Part shown: piece by piece, positions 1 to 57,300 of the stretch | Position numbering within the stretch: the stretch's first letter is position 1 | Layout: each line of letters starts with the position of its first letter | Assembly: GCA_050084515.1 (NCBI GenBank) | Contig: CM114271.1 | Span: 30,380,001-30,444,000, forward strand | Source: Blasia pusilla | Taxonomy: Eukaryota | DNA: 64,000 bases | Direction of reading: 5' to 3' | Notes under the pieces: model-generated | Database searches by the model: none | Told to the model about the DNA's origin: nothing | Seen by the model: only the letters and a program-made list of their open reading frames with translations | Position numbers and translations under genes: made by a program

Positions 1-2479
1 CATCACACTCTAGTGCAAACTTCTTGCTCGACGCGGTTACACATGCTCAGTGGCTAAGCGTCGAAGCTCCTCAATCAAGCCCCAAAGCGACACCTCTCCT
101 CCTTGGACTGATACGGCTACTATGACACTCCTCTCCATAGAAATGTCAAGAACAGGAGTATCCTCTGCGTGGACATGTCCCTCAATCAAATCACTAGGCC
201 AAGTGATGGCACTGCTAAATGCTGCTAAGGTCGCCATCTCTCCACGCCGTCGCTCGATCATTGCACCTGTGAATTGAATGGGTGATGACTTAAGGCGCCC
301 ATCACCTGACTGCCATCCTGGTCTGTAGGACGCTGACTATTCCCAATAATCAAGGGAAAACCCCATCGGGTATAAATATTGCTCCACCAACCAAGACGTC
401 GTAGGACTCTGCATCAGTCATTATTGCCTTGGCTTGCACCACGGACTGATTTGTAGGATGTCCCTGGCGAATCCTCACTATGACCTCCTGTCGGGTGATA
501 AATTGTGTGGTACTTGCTCCACCCAAGGATGTCTCTATCTGGAATGGATAACGCTCCACATTGGCTCTCCTCAAGCCTAATCCTCTTAATGACGCTTTCC
601 CCAACATCATGGGTTGTGCTCTTTAATCCAACAAGAGGCAGTGCGGACTAAAAGCTCTACCTCATGGACTCATCAACTGGAAGACCTCTCCCCGGTTATC
701 TAGCAAAAAAACACCAGGAGAAGCCATGGCACGCTCTATCGCGGGTCTAGCGGGCATTTCCGTCATCCTAGTAGTCGCAGCCTGCCATGAATCTTACGTG
801 GATAGTCCAAGCATCAGCTCTAAGGGCAGGTCCATCACCTCCTCTGCAATCACCTATGAACGTGATGCAAGAACTCCAACTCCACGCTCATATAGCCTAG
901 CGGCCAGCCTCGGTGGACGTACCTCCCAACGTCATAACATCGGAAGCAGAAAATAAAGGAGCTCGGTACACAATGGTGGTCGCCCCCAACAACGTGCTCG
1001 ACACATGCCCCTCCTGAGCATCAGCAATAGGAGTCGTCGCACTCGCTTCTCTCATCGCCCTCCATGCCTGCACACCAACAACATCACCAACTCTCGAGGA
1101 ACTCTGATAAGGACCCATCAATGGGGTTCTCATCGCCTAGGACAACGTGAAAGACTAAGGAAGCCTAGTCTGTTACTTGGCTTTCCCTCGCTATGGATCC
1201 AACTCTGCGGCTGCTCCATGCATCACAACTGCATTGGCCTCCATTTGGGCAACTACGCACATCTAACCAAGATCCTCTATATCTCTGGATGCTCCATATG
1301 ATGTCGATGCCACGGATCTGGCATCGGGTAACCTCAATTCCATAGCGGCAATCTGCTCCTCTAGATGCTGTATCCGAGTAGCCATCCCAGCCTCATGCCG
1401 AGCGTCTCCCTCAACACGTCTAGGTGGTGGGACTCTACCTCCTCCATGGGCAGATCCACCACCCTGTCGGGCAACTCCAGCTCCTTGTCCCCCAACGGGA
1501 CCACCTGTTGGACTATCTCTAGGCACACGTGGATCGGCTACTCGCTCTGGTGCCCTCTCTGGCCCTCGGTCCGGACGTAACTCAGGGTGTAAACTAAAAC
1601 ACGTGGCACATGTGTGACCATATCTCTGAAAATAGTCACACTGATAACCTCTTGGTGCATGTTGTGCGTATATATATCGCTACACAACATACATCGTTGG
1701 TCACATCTATACCACACAACATCGATCTTCTCCCCACACGGGTAGATCCAGACATGTATAAAAATTAACTCATACATATACATGGAGATCACACAACAAA
1801 AATAAAGAGTAGTAAAAACGGCACACTCGGCCTAAAACTCCACTCCTCAATCTACATCGGCATATCGAGCCTCGTCCACCCTACGTTATCAAGGAATCCG
1901 GACGCTAGCACCCTAGTCCTATCTCACACACATACAAGAGAGGTCCTCCAACGGCCCAACATAAGAAAGATGCCTTAGGAAAGCCATCTTCCTCTCTTAT
2001 ATAGGGTTGGGCTCTTCCTCTACAAATATCCATCCCCTTGGTAACGTGTACGCACAGGTTACGAGGGGCGGGTGACCTAGTCAACAAGTCACCCGGTTGT
2101 GAAAGACCTAAACAGGAAAGTTGTCAGAAACAATATTTTTGACACAATGGACCTATCCTCAACCTCATCTGATAGAGTGGGACAAAGTTACACTCAAGAT
2201 AGTCCGCTGGCTCCTACGTCCTATCCACGATAGATCTCGGCCTATTGGCTCCTTAGATGTGATAGTTGTCCTGCGTATACATATCGCTACACAACATACA
2301 TCGTTGGTCACATCTACACCACACAACACTGATCTTCCCCACATACGGGTAGATCCAGACATGTACATAAATCAACTCATACATATATATGGAGATCACA
2401 CAACCGCCCCCCTAGTTGGCACTTGGATTCCCCTAACTCCAGATAGAAAATATCACATCTCTTTGACATGACCTACTAC

Positions 2480-3890
2480 CCTGTACACATCTCGGACACA
2501 TCCATCGTCTCGTGGGAAGTACATCAGGAGGGGGATTCAGACATAAAATATGCCACCCTCAAGAACAACCATCACATACCAACATGGTGGCTGCATCCCT
2601 CTCAGATCCGCACAACATACACCTCAAGCCTGCATGTACCACCGCCAAGCTCGAATCCACTGTCTCATCTACGTTTGGAAGATGACATGGTGCACAATTG
2701 TGCACATGATCCTTCCAAACCATACCAACCCGTCCCTCCAACATGAGGACTCCGGTCGGTAATACCTTGCGCCCACGTAGGATCGTGTGCCCTGCAGTGA
2801 CATCTAGCGTCGTGGGTGCCGCCTGCTATAAATACACGTAATCTCCTAATCCCTGGACGATAACCTCCTCCACGAATGGTTGCATACCTCAATGTACTAA
2901 GCACACGATCTAGAAATACATAAGTTGTTCCTTCGCTTGCCTTGTCCGGTAGTGCCACCAACTCTATCCACTTGGAGAAATGCTCCACCATGACCAACAC
3001 GTACTTATGATGATGCCCCGTCAATGACAAAGGTCCCGCAAAGTCTAAATTCCACTGATAATCTAAACCCATAATCGGCAAAGGATGTAACTGCGGAGTG
3101 GAAGCATTGAAGGATGCTCGCACTGTGTCACATACCATACATCTGGCCACAAACTGTTGTACGCGAGTATGCATGCCGCGCCACCAATAGTGAATCTAGA
3201 GTAAGCTATAAGTATGCTTCACTCCAAAATATCCCAACTCCTCATGGGCATGTCGCACTACACGTGCTCCTTGGGAAGGATGAGGTACCACTCGTATCCT
3301 ACCATCTCTCCATACCCGCAAAATGTGAGTCTCCTCCCACCTGAACCTCATGGCTCTCTGTAGGATCCGATCCCACTCCCTAGCACTCATTGTGCTTGCT
3401 ATGACGCCAATGCGCAAGAACTCCACAACCTCCACGTCGTCATGGATATCACGACCACGTGTTGCCTCCTCACTGACATCCGTATCCAAAGACTCATCAT
3501 CCAACCCCACCACTGGAGTCATCACCTGCAACTGACCTACAATAGTCAACCAACAAAGATAAGCAGATGCATGCCAACCGGGCACCATCTCCTCATCATT
3601 TTCTCCGTGCCATCGAGCTCCTGTGTTGTCGCTCTGACTCGGACATGGGTTACAACTAAACCAATCCGCATCGTGGTTCAGCCAACCTGGCCTGTGAACG
3701 ACCTCAAACTCATACTCCTGTAGTAATAGAGCCTACCCAGCAAGCTTTCTCGTAAGCTTGTCGGACTCCATCAACCACCTCAACGGCTGATGATCAGTGA
3801 TAAGTGTGAAAGGGTTGCCAAATAAATAGCACCTGAAATGTGCCACGGCCCACAGTGCAGCCAAGCACTCTCCCTCGTAGGAGGTGTACT
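2480..3890 (-). pseudogene. E1 RNase H C-terminus, DDE integrase and C-terminal PHD finger (frameshifted)
   Basis: SYEGECLAALWAVAHFRCYLFG/TDHQPL (RH); HAHEELGYFG...CMVC (HHCC); LDFAGPL...VMVEHFSKW (integrase core); CMLCG...MLVCDGC (PHD). Confidence 0.88.
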
Positions 3891-4974
3891 TCACCTCTGC
3901 AATGTCCTCTGTGGCTCTTGAGCAATCAGAGGCGCTCGTGGTCCTCTCCCATGCTGTGTGCAGTCTCTTTGCCTATGGGCCCCTCCACATGTCCAACAAG
4001 ACAACATCGATCCCTGTTGGGCAACATATGTAGGTATGGGTCGTTGCCTCATAGGCTCACGGTACCCCGCCTGCTCTCTCGACACACTCGCCCGCTCCGG
4101 TGGTACTGGTGCTCGCTGTGGCACTTGTGGGGTCATCGTCGCTTGTGGACCAGTCAACTCTCGAGAAAATCCATCGGTCACTACGTGCTCCTCACTCATG
4201 TTAAGCTCAATACGTTCAGACAACTTAAAGACCACCTTCAATGTGGGCTTCGCTGTGTGAATCAACACCGTATCTTCGACTCTCCTCCGTAGTTCTCGGT
4301 CCAGAATCCTGTACCAATACTAGACTGATTGCGCCTCAATCACTCCATACGTAGCAATGATGAGCCTCCTCAGGTGCATGAATGCCTCTCACAATCTCAC
4401 TCGATCGTCGTTGAAAATCTTGTAGACTCTTCAGCTTGTCGGTGCGTACGCCCTGGTAGCTCTTCCCCAACTGTCAGAAGAACTCCACTATGGGACTAAA
4501 GTTGGGTGGCCCTCTACCACCAGAGGTCTCTGCCACATTGCCAGTCTCACTGCCCTCCTCTCCATCTAGTCTCCGGGCTGATGGTGTGGGTCTCTCTCCT
4601 CTCACGATCCCATCATATGCCTCGCGACCACTAGTGGACACATACCCTGGAGCCCAATACATCCTCCAGGCATGAATCTCTACTGAATATAGTGATCGAA
4701 ACTCCATGTAGTCATCCATTGGAGGACTCTCCAAGTGCTGGAACAACCCCTTCCATGCCATGAAAGGGTTGAATCGTATCGGGGTCCGTATCTCCTGGAA
4801 GTCGCACCACGTGTCAAACTTCTGGATAAAATCATCTAAGTTGATGGTGCCCACTGCACCTGAGGAACAACACATGCCCCGATGACCCATGTCGTCCATC
4901 TCTTGCCAAGTGATACTGCCTCCGTTTGATATCTCGTCACCAGACCCCATGTCTAGTGATGACGATCCAGCCAC
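3891..4974 (-). pseudogene. E1 gag (degenerate) with CCHC zinc knuckle
   Basis: ORFs 4474..4974 and 3891..4268 contain CWTCGGAHRQRDC and are nearly identical to the gag at 51276-52200. Confidence 0.8.
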
Positions 4975-7900
4975 GGATGGATGTCGAGGTAGCTCCTCAC
5001 TCGTAACCTCTCAGTATCTCAATCCACTCCGTGTCACACCACTACTACTGCTCGCACTACCCCGTTCTTCCGAACCGTGGAAGAATGCCGTGATGACAAC
5101 CCTGTCTCACCTGCTCAAGCACTCAGACTCACCAAGAGTCTCCTACACTCCTCACTAGCTCACCTATTCTAACGTCAATCCCGTGATGACACACTTGGCC
5201 TCACGCACACTCAACACTCGGGCTCACCATAAGCCTCCCAACTGACTCACCTAACCTAGCGACACTCTTGGATCATACATGCGACCCCTACTCGGCAACC
5301 ACCGTATATCCACCACATGGTACACATGAAAAGAGTCTACACTTGTCATCATCACTACAGCCACCTAGCACCAGCTACTACCTGATACCCAACACTCTCA
5401 ATCACACACGAGAAGTGCGGAAAAAGGGACTCGAATGGGTAACCTAATCATTCCCATCAACCTACTGCACCGTTAACATCCCCTCCTCCATGTAATATGA
5501 TGAGGTAAGGGATGGCCCCGTGGCCGACTCCGCGCCCCATCCGCCTCCGCCTAAAATATGCCCTAGGTGCCTATGACCTAACCAAACCTAGCTGACCTCC
5601 TCAAGGCGACTGCAACTCCTACATGCTCTTTCCTTACACACCCGCTTGCATACACTCGACGCCACACTGCATGCTACACTTGGCTGTTGTCCCCCGTCAA
5701 TCTGCAACAAAGAAATCTGCAAAAAATGGACAGCGCTTTCGCGCACAGCCTTCTGAACACAAAATGACCAACAAAAAATGCCAACCAACGTCTTCAGGGC
5801 TTCCTACCAATGCAACTCGCTTGCCTACCTGTAAACAACAAATTCCCACCAGCCCCTTGACATCTTTCTCATGTAAAAATAAAGAGTAGTAAAAATGGCA
5901 CACCCGGCCTAAAACTCCACTCCTCAATCTACATCGGTATATCAAGCCTCATCCACCCTACGCTATCAAGGAATCCAGACGCTAGCACCCTAGTCCTATC
6001 TCACACATATACAAGAGAGGTCCTCCAACGGCCCAACACGAGAAAGATGCCTTAGGAAAGCCATCTTCCTCTCTTATATAGGGTTGGGCTCTTCCCCTAC
6101 AAATATCCATCCCCTTGGTAACGTGTGCGCACAGGTTACGAGGGGCGGGTGACCTGGTCAACAAGTCACCCGGCTCTGAAAGGCCTAAACAGGAAAGTTG
6201 TCAGAAACAATGTTTCTGACACAATGGACCTATCCTCAACCTCATTCGACAGAGTGGAACAAAGTTACACTCAAGATAGTCCCCTGGCTCCTATGCCCTA
6301 TCCACGATAGATCTCGGCCTATTAACTACTCAGATGTGACATGCAGCACCATCTCCTCCGCCACGCTGAGGCACACGTCCATGACCCTAATGAGTGCAAT
6401 CGCGCTCATGATGGGCTCTACCACATGACCAAAAAGTAATCGTATGCCGCTGCTGCTAAGCCGCATATGAAAGCGCAGGTCTCTATGGCACGGCCTCCCG
6501 ATATCCTCCTTGAGCTCGTGGTGCCACAGTCAACCTATCTCCGAGTCCACGTTGCTGCACAGGTGGTGAAGACTATCATGTCAGCTCTCGCCCAAAACCC
6601 ATGGCGGCTACGCTCTCCTCCGCCATGTTGCGCTCAATATTCTCGGCGGTCCTAAAAACATCTCTCAACGTAGGGGAGGTGTTCATAAGAAGCACCCCCT
6701 CCCGCACTCATGTCCGCAGGGTCCGGTCCAGCATCACGTACCATGAGTGGATAGCTTGAGCCTCTGTCACCCCCTGAGTGACGTTCATCAACCGGCGCAA
6801 GCGAGTGTAAGCCTCAGGCAAACTCTTACCCGGGCGCCTCTGGAAGTCATGGATGTTCTGCAACTTCTCCGTCCGTACCCCCTGGTAGCTCGCCCTCAAC
6901 TCAACGAAGAACTCAACCACGGGGTTGAACTTGGGACGAACCCGACTAGATGGTGGAGCTTCTCCAGTGTGAGTGACCCCTCCTAAAACATCACTGGTGG
7001 AAGAGGAAGTAGCCTCTCTTGACTCCTCCTCCTCATCTGGGAACGGCTCCGTCCATGACACACACTGTGGGTCATAGTAGAGTCGCCATGCCTCAATCTC
7101 TTGGGCATATCCAAATCTCGCGAGTAATCCATCAATCACTCAAACTAAACATGCGGCACTCAATCTACACTCTCTCACTAAGACGTGTGTTGTGCGGAAA
7201 CAAGCAGCGTGGTGCGGAAAATCAACTGATCTATCGTCTTATCGACAAACCATCCTCAACCCTGGACATCCCACACAAGTCTATGTCCCCTAAACCCATA
7301 CATCATCGATTCTCTCAACATTAGCATAAAACCCAATATCCCAAATAACTTCCCAATACTCGGAAATCCTTCACACGTGCAGGGTAAGAAACCAGAATGG
7401 GTAAGTTGACAAGAATGTCGATGTCGCTCCTCGGCAACTGCAAATCTCGACCCCAACTTGATCGTGAAGACAACTCCTCCAATCAGCAAGTCGTACTCCT
7501 CTTGTACTAACGCTGCTCAAACCTCCTCAATGTGCGGTGTAGGTCCAACGGTCTGGTGCGGCACTAGCGGCACGGAACGGCTACAAACAGTACGTCACTT
7601 GGGAATGGGGTACGGCACTCGGCGGCATACCCTCCTCAATCAGCAATTCACAAGCTCCGCTCCTTAGTAAAGGAGCGGCTCCGCGATCGAGATGGTGCGG
7701 TGCGGCCACGATTGGCATGGCGCGGCAATCGGCAGCGCGTTGTGGCTATGGGCGTCACTTCAAGATACTCGATCGTCGTCAAGCGGCTTCCAATCATAAC
7801 ATGGTAGCATGAAATGAAAACTCAAACACCATAACCCGAGGTCACCTACCATCACTGATTGATGATGAAACTACGATGACGGTGGTGGCCAAAATAAAGT

Positions 7901-8799
7901 ACGTGGTGGCGGCGCAAGTCAGAGAATCAACGGTCGTTGTGGAAGACCTTCCACTCCGTAATAGCGGCAATGGCAACCAAGGGTGGACAACGCTCGATGG
8001 TGGACCATGGACCATTCACGGTGACGATTGACCGTTGATGATGATGGTTGACCGTCGATAGTGACTATGACGGCGACAGCCGCCGTCGGCACGGCGGGTG
8101 GTTTAGGGTTTGAACAATTTAACCCTAAAAATTACCTAGCAATGGCAGTTTTGCAAGATTAACCATAACTTCTTGCTTACAACTCCAAATTATGCACTGT
8201 CTATTGCACAACATGCACAACTTCATGACCTATGACGACATCATAAATTGTTTTCAATCAGGAATTCTTGTAAAAATTGACGGGGACTGTCGTAAAGCCC
8301 AACGTCTCTTTCTCCTACACAAAATTTGGCAGCACTTCCGCGCTAATTTCTCCCCAAAAAAAGTAAGACCTATGAGAACACAAATCAGCAAGCTACATGG
8401 TGCTCTCGAGAGCACTGGCATGAAGCAATCCTTCCCCATACTCAATTCCTATCGAAAATTGGCCAGCGCTTCCGCGTGCCAATCTCCCGTACAAAAAATC
8501 AGCAAAACAAAATAGCAAACTCGCACGGCTCTTGCTCCGGTGAGCACTCCCATGAGCCATGAAGTGGGGAACACGGTCCCCCAACCATGAAGCTCCCCCA
8601 TGAAGCTCTCTCACTCACTCATTCTTTCTTTATAGAATAAGATCCAATCTCTCTCACAACACCATAGTTCTCACATGTCTCTCTCAATGTCAAACCAAAC
8701 CCACTCTCCTAATGAGAGGCTTGGGTTACACTCATAAGGCAACGGACCATAGCTCCGCCGCCTCATGCCAAGAGGTTCAAAAAATAGAGAATAAGATCT

Positions 8800-8803
<4 letters not shown>

Positions 8804-8888
<85 letters not shown>
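8804..8888. repeat. (CT)n microsatellite inside the A repeat of E0
   Basis: Pure CT run; the paralogous copy at ~29745 has only a short GA run. Confidence 0.95.
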
Positions 8889-8890
<2 letters not shown>

Positions 8891-10289
8891 TGAGGTTTAC
8901 CCCTCCCCTCTATCATGACCATACATATTATGTCGTAGAGTATAGTGTGCTAGTAGAGGTCATACCTTATGTAGGGCCGCAGTGTCTAGGTAGAGATGCG
9001 ATTTCATACATAGGGTTGGGGTTACTCAGTTGAGGGTGAGTTTTCTAGTAGGGCCCGCTCTTAGGTTGGAGGATATAAGATGGAGTGCACTCAAAGAACA
9101 GTCAATTCTTTGAGTTGAGCCTGTTGCGTTGGGAGTTAGCCTTGGTAGTGAGTAGAGCTCTTGGCTATGGTGTTTCCGCAAGCTTCGACCTAGATTCTCC
9201 CATCGTGGAGTGGGATTGTATGTGATTCTACACGTGTTTTATGATAGTAGGTCTTTCACAAATTTCACTCAAAGAACTGGAGTCGATCGATGGTAGCTTC
9301 GATTGTGGATCAGTAGGATCTTGTTAGGGCTGATTTTGTACTCGGCCGTGGATGTTCGTGGCTTGTGGCCTATGTTGGAGGTTTCAATCTGGTGTGTGAT
9401 TGGTTGGGAAAGAAGCGCCTTGTTGAGAGCTTTGCAATGTGCTTTAGATCGCCGGATTTCGTCAAGGGAGTTGGAAGTTATCAAGGATTGAAGATTCTGG
9501 TTCGTGTTTGACGGTTTTCTGATGCGGAGAGCTTGGAGTGCGGAAGCTCTGTTGAAGTTCATCCAGATCGGGTGAGAGGTTCCTGTTGCTTCTTGTATTG
9601 TGATCTCATGTGAAGCTATCTGCTTGAGTGTGTGGAGCGTTGCGGATTTCTGCGTGCATGGCGGGCGGAAGCGCCGGCGGATTTGCGATCTCGGAGGTGT
9701 ATGGACAGCAAGTTTGTCTGATTTTTAGCTCGGAGTACAGAGCTTGGTTGTAGCTGATTTTTTGTGGAGAGATAGCTATGGTGGTCAATTGAATTTTGGT
9801 TGAAATAGATTCAATTTTGGTCAAGGATTTGTGAAGTAATTGGTGATCAAAATTTTGTGGACTAGCTCAAGGTCTAGCTATGGTGGACTGCGGATCGGAG
9901 GGGCTGGTTGGTTTGTGACTCGTTCATTGTTGGAGACGCCTATCCCATTGGGGGCACCCTGGGTGGGCCTCTCTCCATAGTGAAGCATGGCGAAGCGTGG
10001 CGAACGGGGCGAGACTTTTTGGAGGGTAATGTTTATGCTATGGATTCTCCAATGCATGAGGAGGTAGAGGAGGTCCCTATTTCTGCAGCAGTGGCATCCT
10101 CATCGTTGGATGTGCCACTTTGGAGTTCAGGCGGTGCACAACGGCAAGAGGCTGATTGCCTAGTGCAGGAGGCTGGGTGTGAGGCTGTTATACCTCACGA
10201 GGAAGAGGAGGCCCCACGGCGGACTCCTACTTCTGGTCCACTTGGGTTATCCCCTTTGGATACTACACCCATTGTATGGCAGTATCCGC

Positions 10290-11260
10290 CGGAGGGCATT
10301 TGTGTGTTAGATCTCTTTGGTGGGATTAGCACTGGTTTGGCTACAGTGTTGCAGGCCGGTATTCTTGTGCGGAGATACGTGTATGTGGAGCGAGATGAGA
10401 CGGCCCAGAGAGTCTCATCCCGACATATCGGTCAGTTGATGCGGAGATATCCTGAGTTGTTGCCGCCATTAGCTATTCGTGGGTACCAGCGTGCTTTGCC
10501 GTCACACATTGCATTGTTAGGGGCGCAGGACCTTGAGAGGGTTGGTCTTGTGGATTTGGTGATTGTTGAATGGCCATGTCAGGGTCATACACGTGCTGGT
10601 CGTGGTGAGGGATTACACGACCCTAGGTCTCGATTGTTTTGGGAGATGTTACGGGTGTTACGACATCTTCAAGTTCATCAGGCACGTGCTCTAGCTTACA
10701 TTCTGGAGAATGTTCCATTGTTGGGTGACACTCGGACCCAGATGATGGCGAGTGTTCATGAGGTGCGGTCTTGGATTGGACCAACGGTGTTGTTGGATGC
10801 AGCGCGAGTTGGCTCACGTGCACATCGTCCACGCTTGTGGTGGACAAACTTGTTGCCTAGATAGGTTCTACGTCGAGCATATGATGTAGTGCAGCGGGAT
10901 CCTTGCCTTACAGTAGATAGTATCTTGGATACTGGGCGACTTTCTCATGTGGTGAGGGTTATTGATCGGTCACCCATGGCGGTGGTAAACCGTGTGGGCC
11001 AGCCTAGGATGGCACTACCCACATTTGTGAGTTTTCCCTCGTCACATGCATACAGGGAAGGTGGTCCCGGGCTTGTATGGGATTCTCATGTACGACAGTT
11101 GGTGGAGCCTAACGCTGATGAGAGACAGCGTGCGATGGGATTTGCTACTGGTGTGACAGCGGTTGCTTCCATTTCTAAGGCTTCACGACGTCATATGTTG
11201 GGTTAGGCCATGGACCTGAATTGTTTGACTTGGATTTTGAGTCTTGGTATGGCCGAGCAG
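10290..11260 (+). pseudogene. DNMT3-like C5 cytosine DNA methyltransferase domain within the E2 pol region
   Basis: Motif I VLDLFGGIST; motif IV DLVIVEWPCQG; motif VI ILENV; motif VIII AHRPRLWWTNL; motifs IX/X ERQRAMGF...RRHMLG*AMDL. In-frame TAG stops at 10862 and 11204. Confidence 0.9.
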
Positions 11261-11497
11261 CGTCGACTTTGGACTATGTATGTGGGTCTTCCACCCCTTG
11301 TAATGAGCTCGATGGCTACCGGGACGGTAGAGGCATCGGTTGGGGGCGAGGAGAGTAGTATTTTGCATCCTTGGAGTAAATGAGATGTAATGGTTGGGCA
11401 TGTGAAGTTGGTTGCTCATGCTGGTGGTGGAGTTATTTGCTCAGATGATGGTGTAGCTAAGGGTGTACCATCTTGTGAGGGGGTTGCGTAGTAGCCA

Positions 11498-12846
11498 ATG
11501 GCATCGTCCTCTCCCTCTAGTGTGCCAGTAGAGGAGACTTGGGAGCCATTACTTAGGCCCAAGCTTACGGGAGGTGAGAAACGATGCTTCACACAGTTCC
11601 TACGTGCTTATAGGAGTTGTTTTGCCTTTAGCATGAAAGAGTTGGGTTCTCTGGTTGGACCCGGTATACGGATTCATTTGGCTAGTGATACGCCAATCTT
11701 CCGTCGTCCCCACCGATATAGTGATATGGAGAGGGACCTGATTCAGAGTAGGACGTTGGACCTTTTGGAGGCTGGATTAGTGGAGTTGTCGGCAGGAAAG
11801 TGTAAGTTCTTCCATGAGGATGTTGAGTACTTGGGTCATGTGATTTATCCAGGTGGTTTGGGAGTTCAGCAAGCAAAGATGGAGGCTATTGCCCTTATTC
11901 CGTGTCCGGTAGATGTGAGTAGAGTTCGGGCATTCATGGGATTGGCGAACTACTATCGAAGGTATGTGAAGGGATTTAGTGCTATGGCAAAGCCTTTGAA
12001 CCAATTGCTGAAATCAGATCAAGAGTGGCAGTGGGGAGATGATCAGGAGAGAGCTTTTGTGGAGCTTAAGGCCCAATTGGTGGCGGCGTCTATCTTGAGG
12101 AGACCTATCAGAGGGTGCCAATTTCAGTTACAGATTGATTGGAGTAGGTTGGGACCTGGAGCGGTGTTGACACAACATGATGATGAGCACATGGAGTTTG
12201 TGGTGGCCTATGCAAGTCGTTCGAATAATGCAGCGGAGTCGCGCTATAGTTCATATGAGGGAGAGTGCTTGGCAGTAGTGTGGGCTGTGGCACACTTTAG
12301 GTGTTACTTGTTTGGTACAGAGATGTGGATGAGAGTGTGTTCTCATCGGGCAGAGCTCTTTCGGAGAGTTATGCCAACAGCCTTTGAGAATCTTGCCATT
12401 GCTCAACACAGGGATACGTTGCGATATGCAACCATTCGGGATGGAGGTTATCGACCATCTATTCATAGGTTCCATGTGGGGAACTATGTCTATTTGCAGC
12501 AGATTGCACCGACAACGTTGGATGTGACGGCAGGCCGCACTATTTTACGAGTGCGCGAGGTGTTAGCTTCTGGAGTTCTCATATTGGAGGGTCGTGATGG
12601 AGTTATTTGGAAGGACCATGTGCGTAATGGTGCGTCATGTCATCTTCCAAATGTGGATGGTACTGTTGACCCAAGCTTAGCCATGATACGTGCTAGCTTG
12701 AGGTGCATGTTGTGTGGAGTGCTAGCTAACGCTTGGCCCGTATGTTGGTGTGTGATCGGTGTTCTAGGGGTTGGCACATGATGTGTTTGACTCCACGTAT
12801 GGATTTTGTTCCTACTGGAAGGTGGGTTTGTCCTCGATGTACTTAG
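11498..12846 (+). pseudogene. E2 partial RT, RNase H, integrase C-terminus and PHD finger (two internal deletions)
   Basis: PIFRRP...LLEAGLVE fused directly to KCKFF...EYLGH (RT core lost); VRAFMGLANYYRR; VAYASRS...SYEGECLAVVWAV; integrase core missing. PHD CMLC...CDRC...WHMMC...WVCPRC* at 12704-12846 (one frameshift). Confidence 0.88.
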
Positions 12847-15800
12847 GAGGGGTAGATGACTTGATCTTTGCTTGATATGGATTACAAATGTGCGACTAAC
12901 GATGGGGCAACCTAGCACCCGGCCTTCTCATTCGTGCACCCAAGAAGGTGTATAGCATGTAGTAGATGTATAGGGCTACAGGAGTTAGAGGACCTAAACT
13001 TGATTAGGGGGCGAGTTGTGGTACACTTGTGTTTGTGGATGCTCTTGTCTATGTTATGTATGTATGTGAGTATGGTATGTCAGCGATGTATGTTGTATGA
13101 CGATGTGGATTCGCACGACAAGTGTCATGACCACACAGATTATGTCGTAGAGTATAGTGTGCTAGTAGAGGCCATACCTTATATAGGGCCCCAGTGTCTA
13201 GGTAGAGATGCGATTTCATACATAGGGTTGGGGTTTACTCAGTTGAGGGTGAGTTTTCCAGTAGGGCCCGCTCTTAGGTTGGAGGATATAAGGTGGAGTG
13301 CACTCAAAGAACAGTCAGTTCTTTGAGTTGAGCCTGTTGCGTTGGGAGTTAGCCTTGGTAGTGAGTAGAGCTCTTGGCTATGGTGTTTCCCGCAAGCTTC
13401 GACCTAGATTCTCCCATCGTGTAGTGGGTTTGGCTCGATTGTATGTGATTCTATACGTGTTTTATGACAATAGGTCTTTCACGGATTTCACTTGTGGTAC
13501 ACTTGTGTTTGTGGATGCTCTCGTCTATGTTATGTATGTATGTGAGTATGGTATATCAACGATGTATGTTGTATGACGATGTGGATTCGCACGACACCTC
13601 TCCCAAGCTCTCTCCATGGTAACCTATGCTCCCAAGTCACCTCCTTGGCTCTTGACCTGATGTAGGACAATCAAAGGCCATTTACTAAAATAGAAAGTCA
13701 ATCATATACTCAAAATGATACTCACCTAAAATAGTAAGTTCTTTAATATGGCTCCAGATAAGCCAAAACAAAGGGGAAACCTACTCTCTCAGGTTTCCCT
13801 GGGCCTCAGTAGGTCATCCTTAACCTCTTGAGTCTGTCCTCCACTACTCGCGAAGGCGCTCTACTAGATCTCACTGATCTATCCTAAAAGACGTGACATC
13901 CATGTAACGAAGTTACAAAAGGATGCAAAGAGGATATTTCCTTAATCCGTATGTGGCACGGACACTGACTAGTAGCTACTAATGCATAGCCTATGTTGGT
14001 GCACAAGACCAATCATGGCGAATTTTTTTAATTTTTTTGTTACCCACGTTACAAAAAACTTTTCATGCTGCCTATTGCCTTGTTTTAATTTAGGAGATGT
14101 TTGTAAATCAAGAAACTGCTCTCCCACAATATTATACTAGTGTATAGCCTATGTACGAGACCCATCATGATTAAAAAAGTAAACAAAAAAATCATTCTTA
14201 CACCACTAGCATGTGGCAATTAAAAAAAAATGTGTTTACAAATTAAGAGAACTATTCCAACAAAAAAATATCTACACTAATATTTTAGAACCATGTCTTG
14301 TACTGCTTGCTTGAGCAATTGACACTTGGATATTTTGACCAATGCCAACCTGCCACATGTCCCATATATCTTAGGGTTACTCAATAGTCATTTTTGGGGA
14401 TAGTTCAAGTTAGTGGGTCACATTTTAAAGATTTTAGAGTAATAGGGCGTCTCATATAGAGGGATGTAAGTCTTGCAATGTCTTTTGGGTGTTTGACTAT
14501 AAAACATGGACAACTTCCGTCTATGCCAAGGGATATTTGATTTTATTAGATGTCGTACTATGCATATTGCATGCCCACCTCTTCCACCACCTCGCATTCT
14601 AGCCATGGACACGACATCCATGATTATGACCTAAAGTTTGAGACGTCCTAATGATGGGTAATCTACTCATGATTGCTTGTGGCATCTACTAGTAAATTAG
14701 TATAGCAAACTAAGATTAGAATCTACCAAAATTTTCTTTATATATGCATTCTACAAAATAGGCACCAGGAATAATAAGGAATCTTAGACTGTGTTGTGAG
14801 TGTCAAACATCAAGATCCCTTTTTCTTCTTTCTATTTTTTGCATTTGTAGTGGAGGGGAGGTGGTCCTTCCTATTTACTTCGGGGCAAGTGAAACATTAC
14901 AACATCTTACAAATTAAAAAACTCTTTGACCTAAGAATGGGCCACATTGAGACCTAAGAGACTCACCCTAATCTTATGGAATCTCCCGTAGCCTACTTAG
15001 AACCATCTATTTCATTGACCGAGGTCGAGGTTAAACACTCCCCCTCCCAATTGCTCACACATGCCAATTTAATTGAGAGTAATCCATATTATAGTGGGTG
15101 ATCTTACTTGCATAATAAAACAAAATATCAACAAGATACTATTTTGTCACTTAAGGTGGCATGTTGGTAGGAAAATGATATCATTGGAGGAAGTAATAAG
15201 ATATCCAGTAATGGAGAACTAATGAACGGGAGGAGTGGGGTTCAAGAAAAACCTCAACTACTCAATATTTTTTTAAATAATTTTGTGGAAAACCTTCTTT
15301 TTAAACTTAACATGGGCATGTTAACAAGTTAAGTCGAGAGGGGCTTAAACGTACTAGGAAAAGAAAAAGAAGGGGAAACAATTTCTCCCTCGGCAACCCA
15401 ACTAGACCTTTGTGTCGAAAGGTAATTTTAGGGATGCTCGGGCGTCCTAGAGAGGAAGAAGAAAGTAAATTTTAATAGAAATTGGGACGCAAAACTCATC
15501 GAGATACAAAGGAGGGGGGTGTAGAGAGGCAAAAAAACCCACGGGCATATATCGACCTCGGAGAAACAGAAAAATATTTCTCCTTTAACGACCAAAATCA
15601 CCAACAATAAACAACAACAACACTTATAGAATTATGGCTGTTACTAAGCGGACCTCTAGCATTTAACGCCAATGGCCACTTCGTAGTAGCCATAGCTCGT
15701 TACCCATCGGAAGTACAAAAGAGGGGGACTCAAAGAGTCAAAACCTGAAGGCCACAACAAGACCAGAAAAGGAAGAAAGGGCATTCCCCCAGACGAAACT

Positions 15801-28849: not shown

Positions 28850-29841
28850 AATGGTATGGTTTGGAAAGATCTTGTGCATAACTATGCGTCATGTCACCTT
28901 CCCAACATTGACGGTATAATTCATCCGAGCTTAGAAATAGTTTGTGTATGCTTGAGATATGTATTGTGTGGTTTTTCCCTTGGTGCAACCATTGTGCTTG
29001 TGTGTGATGGATATTCGAGAGGGTGGCATATGGCATGTTTAACGTTACCTCTCACTAGGATTCCTCAGGGACGATGGATGTGTCCCACATGTACATAGAG
29101 TAGATACTAGGTAGTTATGCATTCCAACTTGTATTTGTGATATGGATGACAAGAAGACGATTAATGATGGGGCCACATAAGCACCTGACCTTTTGGCTCT
29201 TCGTGTCCTAGAGATGTATGTCATAGTAGGTAGGAATAGATGGTTAATATTTGGAGTTAGAGGGACCTAATCACGAGCTAGGGGGGAAATTGGAGATATT
29301 TTGGTACTCTATTGTCTCGATGACATTGTTTGGATGTCATAAGTTGAGCATGGGATCCTGTGTGTTTATGTATTTATTTGGTAACAATGATGTATATTGA
29401 ATAGCAATGTGTATGCGCACAATCACTGTCACATATTTTAGAATATATCGATAAGTCTATAGTAGAGTGTCTTCAAGGATAGTGGAGGATAGTCTCAAGA
29501 GTTTGAGGATGACCTGTTGAGGCCACAAGTAACGTGAGAGAGCAGGTTTCCCCTTCATTTCGGCTCATTTGGAGTCATGTACAGAAACTTACTATTTAGA
29601 GTAAGTCACCATTTTGAGTGTAGCTGACTTCCCAATTTGGAAAGTGGCCCTTGACCTCCTACAGCAGGTCAAGAGCCAAGGAGGTGACCTACGAGCATAT
29701 CTTACCGGGGAGAGAGTTTGAGAGAGGGAAGGGGACATACCAAAGGAGAGAGAGCTTTGTAACTCATTCTCTCTTTGTTGAACCTCTTGGCATGAGGCGG
29801 TGGTGCTATGGTTCTTCTTGTATGTGGATTTGGTTTGACAT
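28850..29841 (+). mobile_element. 3' remnant E3 of the same Gypsy group: integrase C-terminus, PHD, PPT, B1, start of A2
   Basis: [19 protein letters not shown]...[13 protein letters not shown]...WMCPTCT*; PPT AGGGGGGAAA at ~29280; B ~29290-29425; A from 29427 (TGTCACAT) is homologous to the 5' end of E0. Confidence 0.8.
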
Positions 29842-31085
29842 GAACACTCAAAACTTCATCTATCACCCATGCTTGAACTATAGACCCCTCGTGACTTCAC
29901 TCCACTATGCCAATCAATCTTGAAGGAGTAAGTATGATTTGGCAACGTAACTACAAGCTCTTGATTTTCCTTGTTCATAAACTATTTTGGTCCTCCAACA
30001 ATATCACTTTGCTCAAAATTGAAGGTTCACTTTTGATCTTGGTCAAGAATTTTGGGCTTTTGTGGTGGTAACTCGTACATTTTCAATGTTTTGCTACTGG
30101 AAACGCTAACTCTGATTTTTATATGGAATTTCTATACAAGGAAATGCTATATTTTAGGTTAATATTTCCAGGTGTTTTTACTAGTTAAAATTGTAAGATC
30201 TCCTCGAATATTCGTATGGGTTGGCTCAACAACCCAACAGAACTAAATCCCCAAACTCATAGTTGATTTCTTAAATCAATTTTAAATGATCTTAGTGGTT
30301 AAGCAATCCTATTGGCTAAGAGGGTTGGGTGTCAAGACAAGAGGTGTTAGAAAATGAAAAGGGCACTCAATAATAATATAGAAGATAAATGATTTATAGA
30401 GATGCATGATTGTTATGAATCATTTATTAGGTATTTATTTTCCAAGATACTTGTGCCCATATGGTTTTCATGAAAATATTCACTAATCAAATATTCAAGT
30501 GAATTTGTAATAAAACTTTTTCCATCACTTATAGGAATCACTAATGGAGTGTAATGCCATAAATTAATGGATGTGTGTTAACTTATTATCTGTCTAATTT
30601 GGTAAATATATGTATTATCATTGTAGAATGGGTTTTCAATTTTTCAAACATTCCTCTCATACATGCCCTTCTCATGTGAAGAAGATGTTGGTGTATGGTG
30701 TAGAAAGGAAAACTAGGTTTAAAAAATTAGAGTAAAGTAAAGTAACCAAAAAAAGTTGAATTTTTGAAGATAGAGAAAAATATTAGGTTCCAAATAAGGA
30801 GGGATCCTAGGGTACTAGAATTTAGGGCTTAGGGTTTTACAAGGTTGTACAAAAATGGACTTGTCCATACGTCAAAAAATCCAACCCTGTGAAACACGCC
30901 CAGGGCCTTAATAAAGGATTAATTCAACAACTACTAAGCTGTTACGCGGCCTTCTTCTTCATTTGGACTTAACCAATATGCCCCGAATGAGGATTTGAAA
31001 TTACAGCAGAATACCCCAAATACTATTGGAAATATCGCTTATGCGGGCTACAAGGCCCGTAAAATCTGAATAAGTTATCATGGAC

Positions 31086-31130
31086 GAGCCACACGTAGGG
31101 AAACTTGCACGTGTGGTTCTGACCGGGGGG
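31086..31130 (+). other. Group II intron domain V fragment, plant-mitochondrial type (NUMT)
   Basis: GAGCCACACGTAGGGAAACTTGCACGTGTGGTTCTGACCGGGGGG. Confidence 0.7.
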
Positions 31131-31796
31131 AAGAACCCTATTGGTATTTATTACCAAGAATGTGTGCTGCCCTTCTTTTGTTTTCCTTTATCTTCCGTGT
31201 ACGTTCTTGTTCAATTGGGAGTAGAGCACGAAGATCCTTGTCCACAAGGTCTTGACACTCAAATCCATCACCAATTTTAGATAACTCAATAATTGAAGTG
31301 TTGGTGGACTTATTAAGCTCCCTACAATTGTCATTACCTTCACCTTCTGCCTCCATTGTGATATGTAGAGGTGATGTTTCTCTCTCACAAGTCAGAGCCT
31401 CTCTTTCAAAACACTTTGATGTTCCTTTCCCCTCTGTACTCAAATCATAAGCCACCACATTTTTGCTGAGATATGCCCTCTCCCTAGATGCACTCAGATC
31501 TTTTACATATGTCCTTGATCTGCAAAGACTTGAACTATTACTTTGATCTATGGCCTTAGGGTCCAATCAAAGTCCCCCCTTACCACATATTGTACTACTG
31601 ATTGAGGCATATGGACCCCCATCCATCTTGAAAGGTTCTGTTGAAAAATGTTGTCAAGGACTTGAATCAAGAGAGCTTATATACACATACAAAAAATGCA
31701 AACATCTCACACAAAGGTTAAACCATAACCACGACTTTTGACTCACTCCTCAAAGTAAACCATATCAATATCAGAACTTTGTAATAGGTTTGAAAT

Positions 31797-34700
31797 TTAA
31801 ATCTCATCATCCTCTTCAGAGCTCTCTTCTTCAATGAACACTTCTCTAGACACAACAATGGTAGGGACATCATTACAATCTATATTTTCTGTCACCACCT
31901 CTTCGGCGGTGAGCTCTATCGCTCCAAGGGAGTTTGCTAGTAGCACCCTTCCTGATAGAGTTTCAATCTGATCAAGGCCGACACAATGTCCTTCATCAAG
32001 GTTTCCACCGTTATATATATCATAAATAACTCGACGAGATCTAGCCTCTTTTCTAAGAACAACCTTCCATCCACTTCCTTCGTTAGCATCTCCAAAGAAT
32101 ACTTGTTCAACTTGAGATGGGAACACAAAGGGTTGGTGGTTGATAGGTTCACAAGATCTAAGGTTTACAAGTAGGAATCCTTCACTGTATCTCTTCATGG
32201 ATGGCATGTGTGAATTCCAATTTGCCCTCACCCACCTCCCTTGCATTAAAATTACAGGTTGATGAACAATCCCATAATCAAGTGCAATTATATCGACCCA
32301 AACTCCCACGTATGAATAAGCAGAGTTCAGATCATCATTTTCCTCATCCAAAAGTACAACTCTGATTCCACTATCATAGGTGGATTACGCATTATATCCA
32401 CCCTCTCCCTCTACCCTATAGTGATTTCCATAAGCCTTCATAGACTTGTATGATAGAACTTTTGGTAGCGGAGGAACTAACAAGGCCAATAGCTCTTCAT
32501 CCACCTTCCCATCTTTTTCCCTAGCATCTTGAAGGATAGCTGGTTGAATCCACTCTAAAAAAGAAATTGATGCATTCTCAGCCTCATGTTTCTTGGTAGA
32601 AAAAAACATAATGACTAAGGAATAAGGTGATTTGGATCACAAAACAAACATGTAAGGTTTGCTAGATTAGGTTCACCATTTACATAATGAGAATTCAATG
32701 ACACTAGTTGGAAATTACGTGCGCCACAAAACCATGGACTCCATATTATGTAAGACATAGTGGTGTGCTAACATACTCATTTCTCTTGAAAATTAGCAAT
32801 GACGTCCTGCACCTTCCAACTCCTCTCCTACGATCCCTTCTTCTTCGCCATCATCCCATATTCGGGTCCTCACATCCTCAAATCTTCTCATATACTCAAT
32901 CACAAATCCCAAAGCCTCATCTTTGATATAACCCTCTGCCATGCAGCCCTCTGGGCGAGCTTTAGATCTGATGTATTTTTTCAGAGTACCCATTTATCTT
33001 TCCATTGGGTACATCCATCCGCAAGCTATGGGCCCACAAATATCCAATTCTTGGATCACGTGGATAAGAAGATGTGTCATCACATCAAAAAAGGATGGTG
33101 GAAAATGCATCTCCAACAGGCATAGGATTATCGCTACGTCTTTATGTAGTTCTTCGTAAGATGCAAGATCATACACTTTACAACACAACAACCTAAAAGT
33201 CTTGCGTAGAAGCATAACAGTTCTATGGATTGGATCCTTCATCAGCCCACGAAGGGCAAACGGAAGGATTTGGTGAATCAGCACATGATAGTCATGTGAC
33301 TTCATGCTACCTAATTTCTTTTTAACCACGTGCTTCTTCAATTCGGCACTATAACCTATGGGCACTTTCAAGGACTCAATCCTACCCAGAAAATGGGACA
33401 TTTTAGGAGGCAATAAAACGTAATCACACTAAGGTTTCAGTCGTGTTTCTTTACTTGGATGGGGTCGTAACCACAAGTGAGGTCGAATTCCACGAGCCTC
33501 CATATCTCTTCTAACCTTCACCATGATGTTGGATACTTTCCAATATGGCAAATCAAACAAAATACTTCGCCGCTTCATCCCCGTCCGCTTCATGGATCAA
33601 TAGAGCATCCTCTCGACCACCTTCATCATCATATGTTTTTTTCTCCTCCGCCCATCTAAGAATTTGATCAGCTGTAATTTGAGGAGGCGCTAGTCTAGTT
33701 TCTCCTTCACCATTGAATTGGGAGTCATAAGCTCATCCTCTCCAAACATGGTCTATTGGAAAATGTCTTCGATGGCAACCAAATATGGGCTTCCCACATT
33801 GTTTGGAGAAATCTGAATCCACATAAGATCCACATCCTATACACGCGAGTTTCCCACCATGGCTTTGTCTTGAGATTGTGCCATATGATGGGTAATCATT
33901 TATAGTCCACAATATCATGGCTCTCAATTTGAACCCCGAAAACCCATGTGGTCTACAAACATCCTGGAATTCAATTCCATTCCACAACTCCCTAAACTCT
34001 TCTACCAATGGGGCCAAGAAGGTGTTGATATTTTCTCCATTCACACTCTCCTTGCCAAGTATTATAAGAGACAACATGACAAAAAACTTCTTGGTTTGAA
34101 GCCAAGGTGGAAAATTTTAATTAACCAATAGTATTGGCCATATTGACCATGAGCTAGCCTTATCAGAGTATGGATTGACACCTTCAAATGCCAAACCAAA
34201 CCGACAATTCCTACTTGCTACAGCAAAGTCTGGGTACAAAAAATCAATATGATTCCAAGCCTTGCTTTCTCCTGCATGCCTCACCAAGCCATCCTTACTC
34301 TTGTTTTTAGAAGACCAGCTCAATAACTCTAACAAAGCCCTATACCTATACATTCGCCGCATCTTAGGGATTATAGGGAAGTGTCTCAATACCTTGTTTG
34401 GTACTAAAGACTTCCCGACTTGCTTGAACCTAGCATTCCCATACTTTGGGCAATTTTCTGCACCTTCCAATTCCCCTCGAAATAGAACACACCCTTTAGG
34501 GCAGGCATGCATTGAGTTGTAGCTCTAACCAAGTTTACAAATGAGTTTATTTGCTGCATAGTATGATGGTGGTACATGATTGTCAGATGGGAGTACCATC
34601 TTACGTAGGAGTTTCAATATCTCATTGATGACAATATTGGGGACCCCATGGGTAGCACCAACATTGAAAGGAGCATAACAAATGCACTCTTTGCTCCTGG

Positions 34701-35081
34701 GAAGAGTGGATTGCATGCTGCAGCAAGTTCATGAAAATCTGATGGGATATTGGGATCATTGGTTTCATTGAGGTTAACATTCTCAGTCCCACTTTCATCA
34801 AAAACCATTTCATCGTCATGGAGGTGATCATATTCTCTAAACATGTCATTCAGCATCAGAGGAACATGGACATCAACATCCAAATTAGGAATTTGTTGAT
34901 GTGAAAATCTAAGTGTAAGAGTTGATTGCATAATAAGCTCACGTTGCTCCTTCTCATTGCTCTCTTGTTTTATAAGCCACTCCTCATCTGAAGAGTCCCA
35001 CTCTTCCCTACTTTTTGGGACCCGACAAAGATGAGATCTTCCATTTTTTCTCAGATGGTCATCTACCTTCCCTAGTCCCAA
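31797..35081 (-). pseudogene. CACTA/En-Spm TNP2-like transposase, frameshifted
   Basis: HACPKGCVLFR; VLRHFPIIP; SWSIWPILLVN; LWTINDYP; MKSHDYHVL; FFDVMTHLLIH; WMYPMER; PEGCMAEGY; PFVFPSQVEQVFF. Termini not found. Confidence 0.92.

Positions 35082-56644: not shown

Positions 56645-57300
<656 letters not shown>

Follow-up and report, generated by a model that had tools for sequence, protein, structure and literature searches.

Gypsy retrotransposons bearing a Dnmt3 domain were described in Klebsormidium nitens (KnitGypsy-Dnmt3), where Dnmt3 is part of the Gypsy polyprotein, the repeats follow a DIRS-like layout of A, coding region, B, A and B (Fig. 1e legend) and Ka/Ks lies below 0.2; the accessible text of that article mentions neither Marchantia nor liverworts (PMC5890265). 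We analyzed a stretch of 64,000 nucleotides of the genome of Blasia pusilla (assembly GCA_050084515.1, contig CM114271.1, positions 30,380,001 to 30,444,000 of the forward strand; hereafter the window), in which the plus-strand element at 8911-13596, called E1, is very probably a dead and deleted copy of a bryophyte Ty3/Gypsy-type family carrying a DNMT3-like methyltransferase of the Klebsormidium kind. By comparison with the described systems, we would rate this family as a land-plant member of the known Gypsy-DNMT3 type, with some new anatomical detail.

The likeness to KnitGypsy-Dnmt3 covers an unrearranged Dnmt3-type domain in a Gypsy-type polyprotein, A-coding-B-A-B repeats, a streptophyte host and purifying selection (Ka/Ks <0.2 there, 0.10-0.24 in the bryophyte family), and thus bears out, down to the repeats, the Klebsormidium precedent invoked by an earlier reading of the DNA made without database searches, here called the sequence-only reading (PMC5890265). 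The hosts differ, an alga there and land plants (liverworts and Sphagnum mosses) here, and the domain order, in-frame UAG and target duplications that we describe for the present family are not stated in the accessible text of that article (PMC5890265). Similarly, SymbioDIRS-Dnmt3 of Symbiodinium combines a Dnmt3-type domain in its Pol polyprotein with A-coding-B-A-B repeats, but has a tyrosine recombinase in a separate open reading frame (ORF), whereas the present family has an H2C2/DDE integrase and 4-bp target duplications (PMC5890265). The EpiLTRs of Cymbomonas and Euglena are long terminal repeat (LTR) retrotransposons with a cytosine methyltransferase and a chromatin reader; as far as the preprint could be consulted, their DNMT is sister to DNMT4 and lies at the 3' end of pol, together with a chromodomain and a Dam-like adenine methyltransferase; the present family shares none of these features (bioRxiv 10.64898/2026.05.21.726589). 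The accessible part of the same 2026 preprint also mentions "streptophytes (Gypsy-DNMT3)", citing the Klebsormidium work (PMC5890265). For M. polymorpha, five host DNA methyltransferases were counted in the portion of the article available, which concerns host genes only (PMC5784723). No description of Gypsy-DNMT3 elements in Marchantia or other bryophytes was found in the literature searched, six Marchantia gene identifiers included, although supplementary trees may hold unremarked sequences.

The methyltransferase domain of E1 occupies 10280-11260 on the plus strand, as do all parts of E1 given below, and the frame starting at 10280 is 327 residues long and is broken exactly twice, each time by a TAG stop (10862-10864 and 11204-11206). 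It scores 30.2 bits with the Pfam model PF00145 (C-5 cytosine-specific DNA methylase), above the curated cut-off of 22 (E 4e-7), and its intact relatives, 77-81% identical to it, reach 35-51 bits. With motif numbers that we take to be those in use for C5-methyltransferases, the domain shows motif I (LDLFGGISTG, 10307-10336), motif IV (EWPCQG, 10568-10585, with the catalytic PC at 10574-10579), motif VI (ENV, 10706-10714), motif VIII (AHRPRLWWTNL, 10820-10852), motif IX (ADERQRAMGF, 11114-11143) and motif X (LG*AMDLN, 11198-11221, containing one of the two stops). The succession I, IV, VI, VIII, IX, X is canonical and unpermuted. The sequence-only reading had called the domain a cytosine methyltransferase of DNMT3 style, with PC, ENV and AHRxRxxWxNL in canonical and not DRM-permuted order, and was right on each of these points, as judged from the Pfam score, the motif residues and the DNMT3 ranking by sequence and fold reported next.

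When the E1 domain was compared with all PDB chains by phmmer, DNMT3A came first (E 3e-11), followed by DNMT3B (1.5e-9), DNMT3C (3e-8), tobacco DRM (6e-4), M.HaeIII (6e-3) and DNMT2 (0.05). A profile built from 14 family members likewise placed DNMT3A (2e-20), DNMT3C (8e-19) and DNMT3B (8e-18) ahead of DRM (3e-11 to 7e-9), HaeIII (2e-7), HhaI (9e-7) and DNMT2 (1e-5), and matched no DNMT1 chain in the PDB at E up to 1. The DRM chains aligned to the first 130 profile positions only, as expected because DRM is permuted. An AlphaFold2 model of the intact domain of a metagenome copy, L018, had a mean predicted local distance difference test score (pLDDT) of 72 and a predicted template modelling score of 0.76; all the PDB matches listed by Foldseek for this model were catalytic domains of DNMT3A, 3B or 3C, the best at E 3.8e-15 with a TM score of 0.73 on target length. 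As to the kind of METHYLTRANSFERASE, a predicted DNMT3-like nature, not DRM-permuted, holds among solved structures, because phmmer, the profile and Foldseek all rank DNMT3 first. A DRM-type enzyme was ruled out by the unpermuted motif order and a profile ranking below DNMT3A, and a bacterial-type enzyme by HaeIII and HhaI being weaker than DNMT3A in the same ranking. Mammalian DNMT3A, DNMT3B and DNMT3C are thus the best matches in sequence and fold, unpermuted, with a motif VIII of the form AHRxRxxWxNL as in DNMT3A; DNMT3A differs by its low identity (~20%), by PCN in motif IV where the family has PCQ, and by a shorter stretch between motifs VIII and IX. Moreover, unlike host DNMT3 genes, the family domain is intronless and lies within a Gag-protease polyprotein, with neither PWWP/ADD nor another reader upstream. 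Such N-terminal readers are PWWP/ADD in animals and a DUF in land plants, according to the accessible text of a recent article (PMC12344493). Next to the family DNMT, Pfam finds only the protease upstream and the reverse transcriptase (RT) downstream, and no reader domain; the PHD finger of these elements ends ORF2.

E1 is a Ty3/Gypsy-type element with an internally deleted coding region and the layout A1, internal, B1, A2, B2. Ahead of the methyltransferase domain, 9270-10279 holds the leader and what remains of the C-terminal end of the protease, a deletion with a breakpoint near 10011 having removed gag and the greater part of the protease; tblastn matches of the relatives P0001, P0004 and P0006 to E1 begin at 9881-10013. 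Behind the domain, ORF2 starts with an N-terminal part of the RT (11495-11791; tblastn with residues 696-782 of P0004), is cut by an internal deletion at 11791/11793, and continues with the C-terminal RT and RNase H (11793-12319; PF17919, E 7e-27; PF17917, E 1.5e-19) to a breakpoint at 12319/12372. The coding remnants end at 12344-12852 with the integrase C-terminal region and what is left of a PHD finger (tblastn with residues 990-1159 of P0032 and 1548-1713 of P0034), a domain that Pfam confirmed in intact relatives. Full-length relatives have three parts that E1 has lost wholly or largely: gag with most of the protease, the bulk of the RT core, and everything between the end of RNase H and the C-terminus of the integrase. 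The RT/RNase H ORF (11495-12781) shares its frame with the methyltransferase domain, and only stops lie between the domain and the RT fragment, namely a TGA in the linker just outside the domain (11381-11383) and TAG TAG (11486-11491). That frame relationship had been noticed beforehand, the stops being taken as mere interruptions; this is correct for the premature ones, but the TAG at 11486-11488 is the native and conserved ORF1 stop of the family, the relatives having CAG or CAA at the second of the two codons. E1 is dead and makes no enzyme, because three premature stops precede the native ORF1 stop and several internal deletions are added to them. The earlier verdict of a copy killed by two TAG codons in the domain was therefore sound in its outcome and incomplete in its causes, since it lacked the TGA at 11381 and the deletions.

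The domain is a feature of a family. A protein search with the E1 domain returned 36 long and 168 near-length relatives, the closest at E 1e-165 to 1e-175, which excludes chance resemblance. The named close relatives are all bryophytes (Marchantia polymorpha, M. paleacea, Riccia sorocarpa, Calypogeia fissa and several Sphagnum species), and no vascular plant was among the matches listed. Those of M. polymorpha are up to 77% identical, measure 1150-1330 amino acids and contain PF00145, some of them also RT and RNase H. In a scan of metagenome contigs, 171 of 282 candidate stretches encoded a relative and 80 loci were kept, with identities to the E1 domain of ~70-76% in class 1, ~48% in class 2 and 34-43% in class 3. 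RT was the next domain downstream in 56 of the 58 loci having 1.2 kb or more of room and the protease the next domain upstream in 50 of 54, and the order protease-DNMT-RT was seen on both sides in 36 of the 40 loci with room; the misses had no recognizable domain at all and none had a contrary order. These counts do not represent independent events, because several loci are near-duplicates (L058/L059/L060; L028/L029). The window itself contains a second, diverged copy, E3 (60750-63998, plus strand), cut by the window end and showing gag with a CCHC motif from 60750, a protease with DSG (61547-62137), a frameshifted DNMT (62283-63100) 60-71% identical to that of E1 by tblastn, TAG CAG CCA at 63327-63335 and RT at 63330-63998; PF00078 was found on the last, gag and protease by tblastn with P0001 and P0004. 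Locus L018 seems intact, with an ORF1 (976-5082) of 1369 amino acids including an aspartic protease and the DNMT, and an ORF2 (5086-8226) of 1047 amino acids including RVT_1, RNase H, Integrase_H2C2, rve and PHD. Among the intact L018, L019 and L020, the ratio of nonsynonymous to synonymous substitutions (dN/dS, Nei-Gojobori, three pairs) is 0.12, 0.12 and 0.10 in the DNMT, as compared with 0.06 in ORF2 and 0.19 in the protease-linker region, and E1 against 10 class-1 copies gives 0.17-0.24 for the DNMT, with post-insertion decay included. The methyltransferase domain is a stable and selected component of the family. Two tests that had been proposed for the domain, its presence in other copies and purifying selection among them, thus both turned out in its favor. 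Of the proposal that it lies within a retrotransposon pol, what stands is that it is integral to a Ty3/Gypsy-type bryophyte family; in classes 1 and 2 it sits at the end of ORF1 and not in an uninterrupted pol.

A tree built from 37 element-borne domains groups class 1 in one clade (100/100), which includes Marchantia, Calypogeia, Sphagnum and E1; the closest neighbors of E1 are a metagenome protein and Sphagnum, not M. polymorpha. Class 2 joins class 1 at 93/94. Within class 1, copies from Sphagnum and metagenomes are placed on short branches among the liverwort ones, which could reflect old co-existing lineages, horizontal transfer or contamination. Further relatives are numerous: with clusters at 50% identity, and green-algal relatives included, the number of cluster representatives retrieved by an exhaustive profile search was 13009 with E no higher than 1e-3, 2526 at 1e-10 and 507 at 1e-30. 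Polyproteins of Cymbomonas, Haematococcus, Chromochloris and Scenedesmus are named distant relatives, at 32-39% identity. The green-algal Gypsy-type polyproteins have a related DNMT (E 1e-70 to 1e-116 with the family profile) and agree with the bryophyte elements in their integrase C-terminus and PHD finger, but their order is RT-RNaseH-DNMT-INT-PHD where tested, in one long pol ORF, whereas in bryophytes the DNMT stands between protease and RT and there are two ORFs. Polyproteins with the DNMT between RNase H and integrase and a C-terminal PHD are among P0032, P0034, P0197, P0211 and P0240 (green-algal and metagenome), and no name for such elements was found in the literature searched. By Pfam, the order RT-RNaseH-integrase with RVT_1, RT_RNaseH, H2C2 and rve is common to ORF2 of L018, P0034 and P0211. 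In a Closterium protein the DNMT precedes RT, as in bryophytes, and one metagenome Copia-type polyprotein reads gag, DNMT, protease, integrase and RT; a side list of distant relatives also names P0213 and P0221 (Closterium and Copia-type polyproteins). No Klebsormidium protein appeared by name among the matches listed in the searches for relatives, which by their nature cannot show absence.

This diversity bears on whether one ancient lineage is in question or whether the bryophyte elements, KnitGypsy-Dnmt3 and the green-algal elements acquired DNMT3 independently. The latter is unlikely, while being the strongest of the alternatives. In its favor, the placement of the domain varies (protease-DNMT-RT in bryophytes; DNMT-RT in Closterium; RT-RNaseH-DNMT-INT in Cymbomonas, Haematococcus and Scenedesmus; gag-DNMT-protease in the Copia-type polyprotein), the deep nodes of the 37-row tree do not resolve, and recurrent acquisition was argued by de Mendoza et al. 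in the accessible text of their article (PMC5890265). Against this, the element-borne DNMTs match the family profile at E 1e-70 to 1e-130 and DNMT3A only at 2e-20, algal and bryophyte elements have the integrase C-terminus and PHD finger in common, and the unusual A-coding-B-A-B repeats are shared with KnitGypsy-Dnmt3 as far as that source describes them.

In classes 1 and 2, the two-ORF layout of the bryophyte family is marked by one in-frame stop, whose place between DNMT and RT is conserved. The residues around it differ by class (...VFA*QPMASS... as opposed to ...SATD*QLEAV...), and the two classes share only ~50% identity in the DNMT, yet the position of the stop is the same. Its context is TAG CAG CCA in E3, TAG CAA CCC or TAA CAA CCC in seven class-1 loci, TAG CAG TTA in L018 and L019 and TAG CAA TCA in L020, the second codon having decayed in E1 and L022 (TAG TAG CCA) and in L025 (TAG TAA CCC). 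The type I readthrough signal of plant viruses is given as UAG-CARYYA in the accessible part of a published account (PMC5382211), and the contexts of the family fit or nearly fit it. The annotated Marchantia proteins P0001, P0002 and P0006 end ~50-70 residues past the domain, in agreement with a stop at the conserved site. As the conserved stop lies between DNMT and RT, the methyltransferase is predicted to close a Gag-protease-DNMT protein encoded by ORF1 of both classes, with ORF2 encoding RT-RNaseH-INT-PHD in the same frame. We propose that the UAG in its UAG-CAR-YYA type I context would be read through at low frequency, so that Gag-protease-DNMT would be translated from every genomic RNA and RT, integrase and PHD only upon passage of the stop. 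On this scheme the DNMT would outnumber RT and integrase much as Gag does, and would be cut out of the polyprotein by the protease.

Transcription of the family was assessed with three RNA-seq runs of one study carrying the same species label, ~6-12% of each run being read and reads being placed on 8900-13700 of the window at a likeness of at least 92%. The three runs gave 2460, 2556 and 2495 reads, of which only 61, 71 and 47 reached at least 99% likeness; because so few did, the reads come from related copies and not from E1. Nearly all of them have the first mate on the minus strand, that is, they are in sense orientation if the usual stranded-library chemistry is assumed, and the mean depth per bin over 10027-13407 is about 33-230. 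Where E1 has its premature stops, the reads carry other letters yielding sense codons, in 54/54, 60/60 and 90/90 reads at 10862, in 53/56, 42/42 and 60/60 at 11204 and in 101/101, 50/50 and 92/92 at the TGA (11383). Their alignment with E1 also breaks off exactly at 10011, at 11791/11793 and at 12319/12372, beyond which they run on into the coding sequence missing there, the loose read ends near 10011 running upstream into protease-coding sequence. Related copies of the family are thus transcribed in the organism of the window. The depth over A1 as compared with A2 is uninformative and cannot place the transcript ends, because reads of other copies map to the closer repeat. Some reads (10, 7 and 3) skip 92 bases over the polypurine tract and the start of B1 (12970-13063), and others (1, 4 and 5) join 13440 back to 8940; both sorts may stem from variant copies or unusual junctions.

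An intact DNMT of this kind would perform S-adenosylmethionine-dependent de novo cytosine methylation of double-stranded DNA, the likeliest substrate being the new double-stranded cDNA of the element itself or its fresh insertion, while the PHD finger linked to the integrase would read chromatin (histone tails) at the target. The intact copies are likely to be catalytically competent; that self-directed methylation is the selected function is a possibility that we would set slightly short of an even chance.

Several observations weigh against the interpretation of E1 as a dead member of a methyltransferase-bearing family of the Klebsormidium kind, or against parts of it. Kinship with KnitGypsy-Dnmt3 would follow from shared architecture and not from a tree, the deeper nodes of the 37-row DNMT tree, including Closterium and class 3, do not resolve, and the suggested placement inside the DNMT3 clade comes from PDB ranking and not from a tree with host enzymes. 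E1 has V-E just 5' of the catalytic PC where its relatives have A-G, and the region between motifs VIII and IX, of ~85 residues, was modelled at pLDDT <50 (low-confidence residues 212-269 of L018). Class 3 has EC for PC in motif IV (GWECQG instead of GWPCQG; L028, L039, L075) and no stop between DNMT and RT, so that the DNMT reads straight into RT; therefore neither motif IV nor the ORF layout is universal, and every class-3 copy seen has stops elsewhere. Owing to the near-duplicate loci the counts of domain order are not independent, and the RNA support comes from those three runs of a single study, each read in small part, with a sense call that assumes the usual chemistry. Readthrough is proposed from the stop context only, and reinitiation at an ATG a few codons downstream may be the alternative. 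Finally, 76 of the 80 metagenome loci carry 1-14 stops in the domain in their best alignment, and 4 none, so that most copies are dead. The decay of class 1 has a marked signature: across 11 copies (loci L001-L012 together with 10280-11257 of the window), 749 differences from the majority letter of a column were counted, 70% of them G>A or C>T, and the stops arise mostly from CGA, CAG and CAA codons. This substitution pattern looks like that expected for deamination of methylated cytosine.

Some of these points would also suit a domain kept without methylating DNA, serving as a DNA- or chromatin-binding module or acting on RNA or RNA-DNA hybrids during reverse transcription, which we consider improbable. 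The EC of class 3, a target-recognition region longer than that of DNMT3A and poorly modelled, and the lack of the N-terminal readers of host DNMT3s speak for it; against it, motifs I, IV (PCQ), VI (ENV), VIII (RxR), IX and X vary little or not at all across classes 1 and 2 (12-14 aligned sequences), and purifying selection is as strong on the domain as on the protease-linker. The retrotransposon DNMTs of Symbiodinium were reportedly active when tested by de Mendoza et al.

The repeats of E1 are arranged as in KnitGypsy-Dnmt3 and not as in an ordinary LTR element: there is no pair of identical LTRs at the two ends, the left end having A only and the right end B-A-B. Repeat A1 (8911-9269) is 93% identical to 13125-13492 and begins TA-TCATGACC where A2 has TG-TCATGACC. 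On the right, a polypurine-like tract, GATTAGGGGGCGAG (13002-13015), stands directly 5' of B1 (13016-13120; 105 bases, 97% identical to 13492-13596) and is followed by A2 (13123-13492) and by B2 (13492-13596), which ends CGCACGACA and forms the right end of E1. The target-site duplication CCTC flanks the element at 8907-8910 and 13597-13600, and the empty site with a single CCTC was seen in RNA reads and in a paralogue within the window (reverse complement of about 29660-29860). The same repeat layout is found in a deleted family member on the minus strand (1660-6341), in which the gag N-terminus is joined to RNaseH-INT-PHD, with A1 at 6341-5875, B1 at 2404-2272, A2 at 2262-1798, B2 at 1797-1660, TG..CA ends and the target-site duplication TGCA at 6345-6342 and 1659-1656. 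It interrupts the gag of an outer copy (7109-6354 and 1640-52) between the two zinc knuckles; with exactly one TGCA copy retained, and in no other case, the outer gag reads through in one frame. This inner element measures 4682 bp and E1 4686 bp, near-equal lengths despite different deletions; the DNMT of the outer copy (52-7109, minus strand) would fall beyond the left window end.

A-internal-B-A-B was found in four separate and diverged elements, the two of the window, L062 and L069. Among 35 longer metagenome loci, a B1/B2 pair lies just past the PHD region in about six further distinct elements, and no repeats were found in several long ones, for example L010, L051, L056 and L078; L080 has an A1/A2 pair, its contig stopping before B2. 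The end words common to the classes are TGTCA at the 5' end and (T/C)GACA or CAACA at the 3' end, and a G-run is located directly 5' of B1 in the five elements examined out of five. Target duplications of 4 bp occur in both window elements, in the same register, flanking the start of A1 and the end of B2; the flanks of L069 match at three of four bases and L062 has no convincing duplication at its flanks. No primer-binding site complementary to a tRNA 3' end was recognized by eye after A1 in the elements examined. By Pfam, the family encodes rve (PF00665) and Integrase_H2C2 (PF17921) and no phage-integrase domain; with these domains and the target duplications, a DIRS-like class using a tyrosine recombinase was ruled out. 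Target duplications and the H2C2/DDE integrase together suggest that a linear DNA running from the start of A to the end of B is inserted in the manner of an integrase. As a speculation, the genomic copy might correspond to a circle with two LTRs that was opened where they meet, at the internal palindrome ...GACA|TGTC....

An accidental origin of this layout, by LTR recombination, truncation of a 5' LTR or chance partial LTRs downstream, would suit the long loci devoid of repeats, L062 with its unduplicated flanks and the unrecognized primer-binding site. It is very improbable in view of the full layout in four diverged elements, A1/A2 in L080 and B1/B2 in about six more, of duplications at the start of A1 and the end of B2 in both window elements with empty sites confirming the ends, and of the same arrangement published for KnitGypsy-Dnmt3 in the text available (PMC5890265). 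That a single copy captured a host DNMT3 by transduction or chimeric insertion is next to untenable, for although E1 is rearranged by several deletions and nested regions rich in transposable elements can yield chimeras, protease-DNMT-RT recurs in E3, in proteins annotated in four or more genera of bryophytes and in 36 of the 40 metagenome loci having room on both sides, no locus being contrary, and L018 has a continuous gag-protease-DNMT ORF of 1369 amino acids with dN/dS of 0.10-0.12.

On top of the interpretation of E1 as a dead member of a bryophyte Gypsy-DNMT3 family, a bolder idea may be advanced, tentatively and with the odds somewhat against it. Bryophytes could harbor a living, integrase-type lineage of old streptophyte origin, in which permuted A-internal-B-A-B integration with target-site duplications is combined with a DNMT3-type ORF1 enzyme made at Gag stoichiometry ahead of a leaky UAG. 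Such an element would be a hybrid of DIRS-like repeat topology and Ty3/Gypsy integration.

As for its surroundings, E1 is inserted into another repeat family (13569-13700 and about 8747-8910) with a (CT)n microsatellite at 8806-8888. A paralogue of this host repeat lies at about 29427-29860 on the minus strand, and in the RNA runs the host repeat around E1 shows opposite-strand transcription at a depth of 72-150. At 56844-57363 lies a long (CT)n/(GA)n microsatellite that resembles the one beside E1. Elsewhere, the window contains a multi-exon cytochrome P450 gene (22932-26642, plus strand) with PF00067 in three exons, whose nearest Atlas clusters are commonest in Streptophyta. On the minus strand are remnants of a CACTA-type transposase (Transposase_21, about 31100-35100) and of a hAT-type one (DUF4371 and hAT dimerisation domain, 42412-44493), as well as a weak RT fragment (47976-48644).

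Cytosine methylation is the main weapon of the host against transposons, and a transposon with its own de novo methyltransferase inverts this logic. In print, the arrangement was so far limited to a green alga and dinoflagellates, Gypsy-DNMT3 being tied to Klebsormidium in the literature searched; the type is now found in liverworts and Sphagnum mosses as a large family, under purifying selection and transcribed. As a practical warning, transposon genes are found among the DNMT-like gene models annotated in bryophytes. Mechanistic handles are offered by the position of the enzyme in ORF1 before a presumably leaky stop and by the combination of split repeats with insertion of the integrase type, and whether a transposon benefits from methylating DNA becomes testable in a genetically tractable land plant. 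If the proposed activity is true, land-plant cells transcribing the family would contain a transposon-encoded cytosine methyltransferase activity, which would mark the cDNA or new insertions of the transposon and could add to the host methylome.

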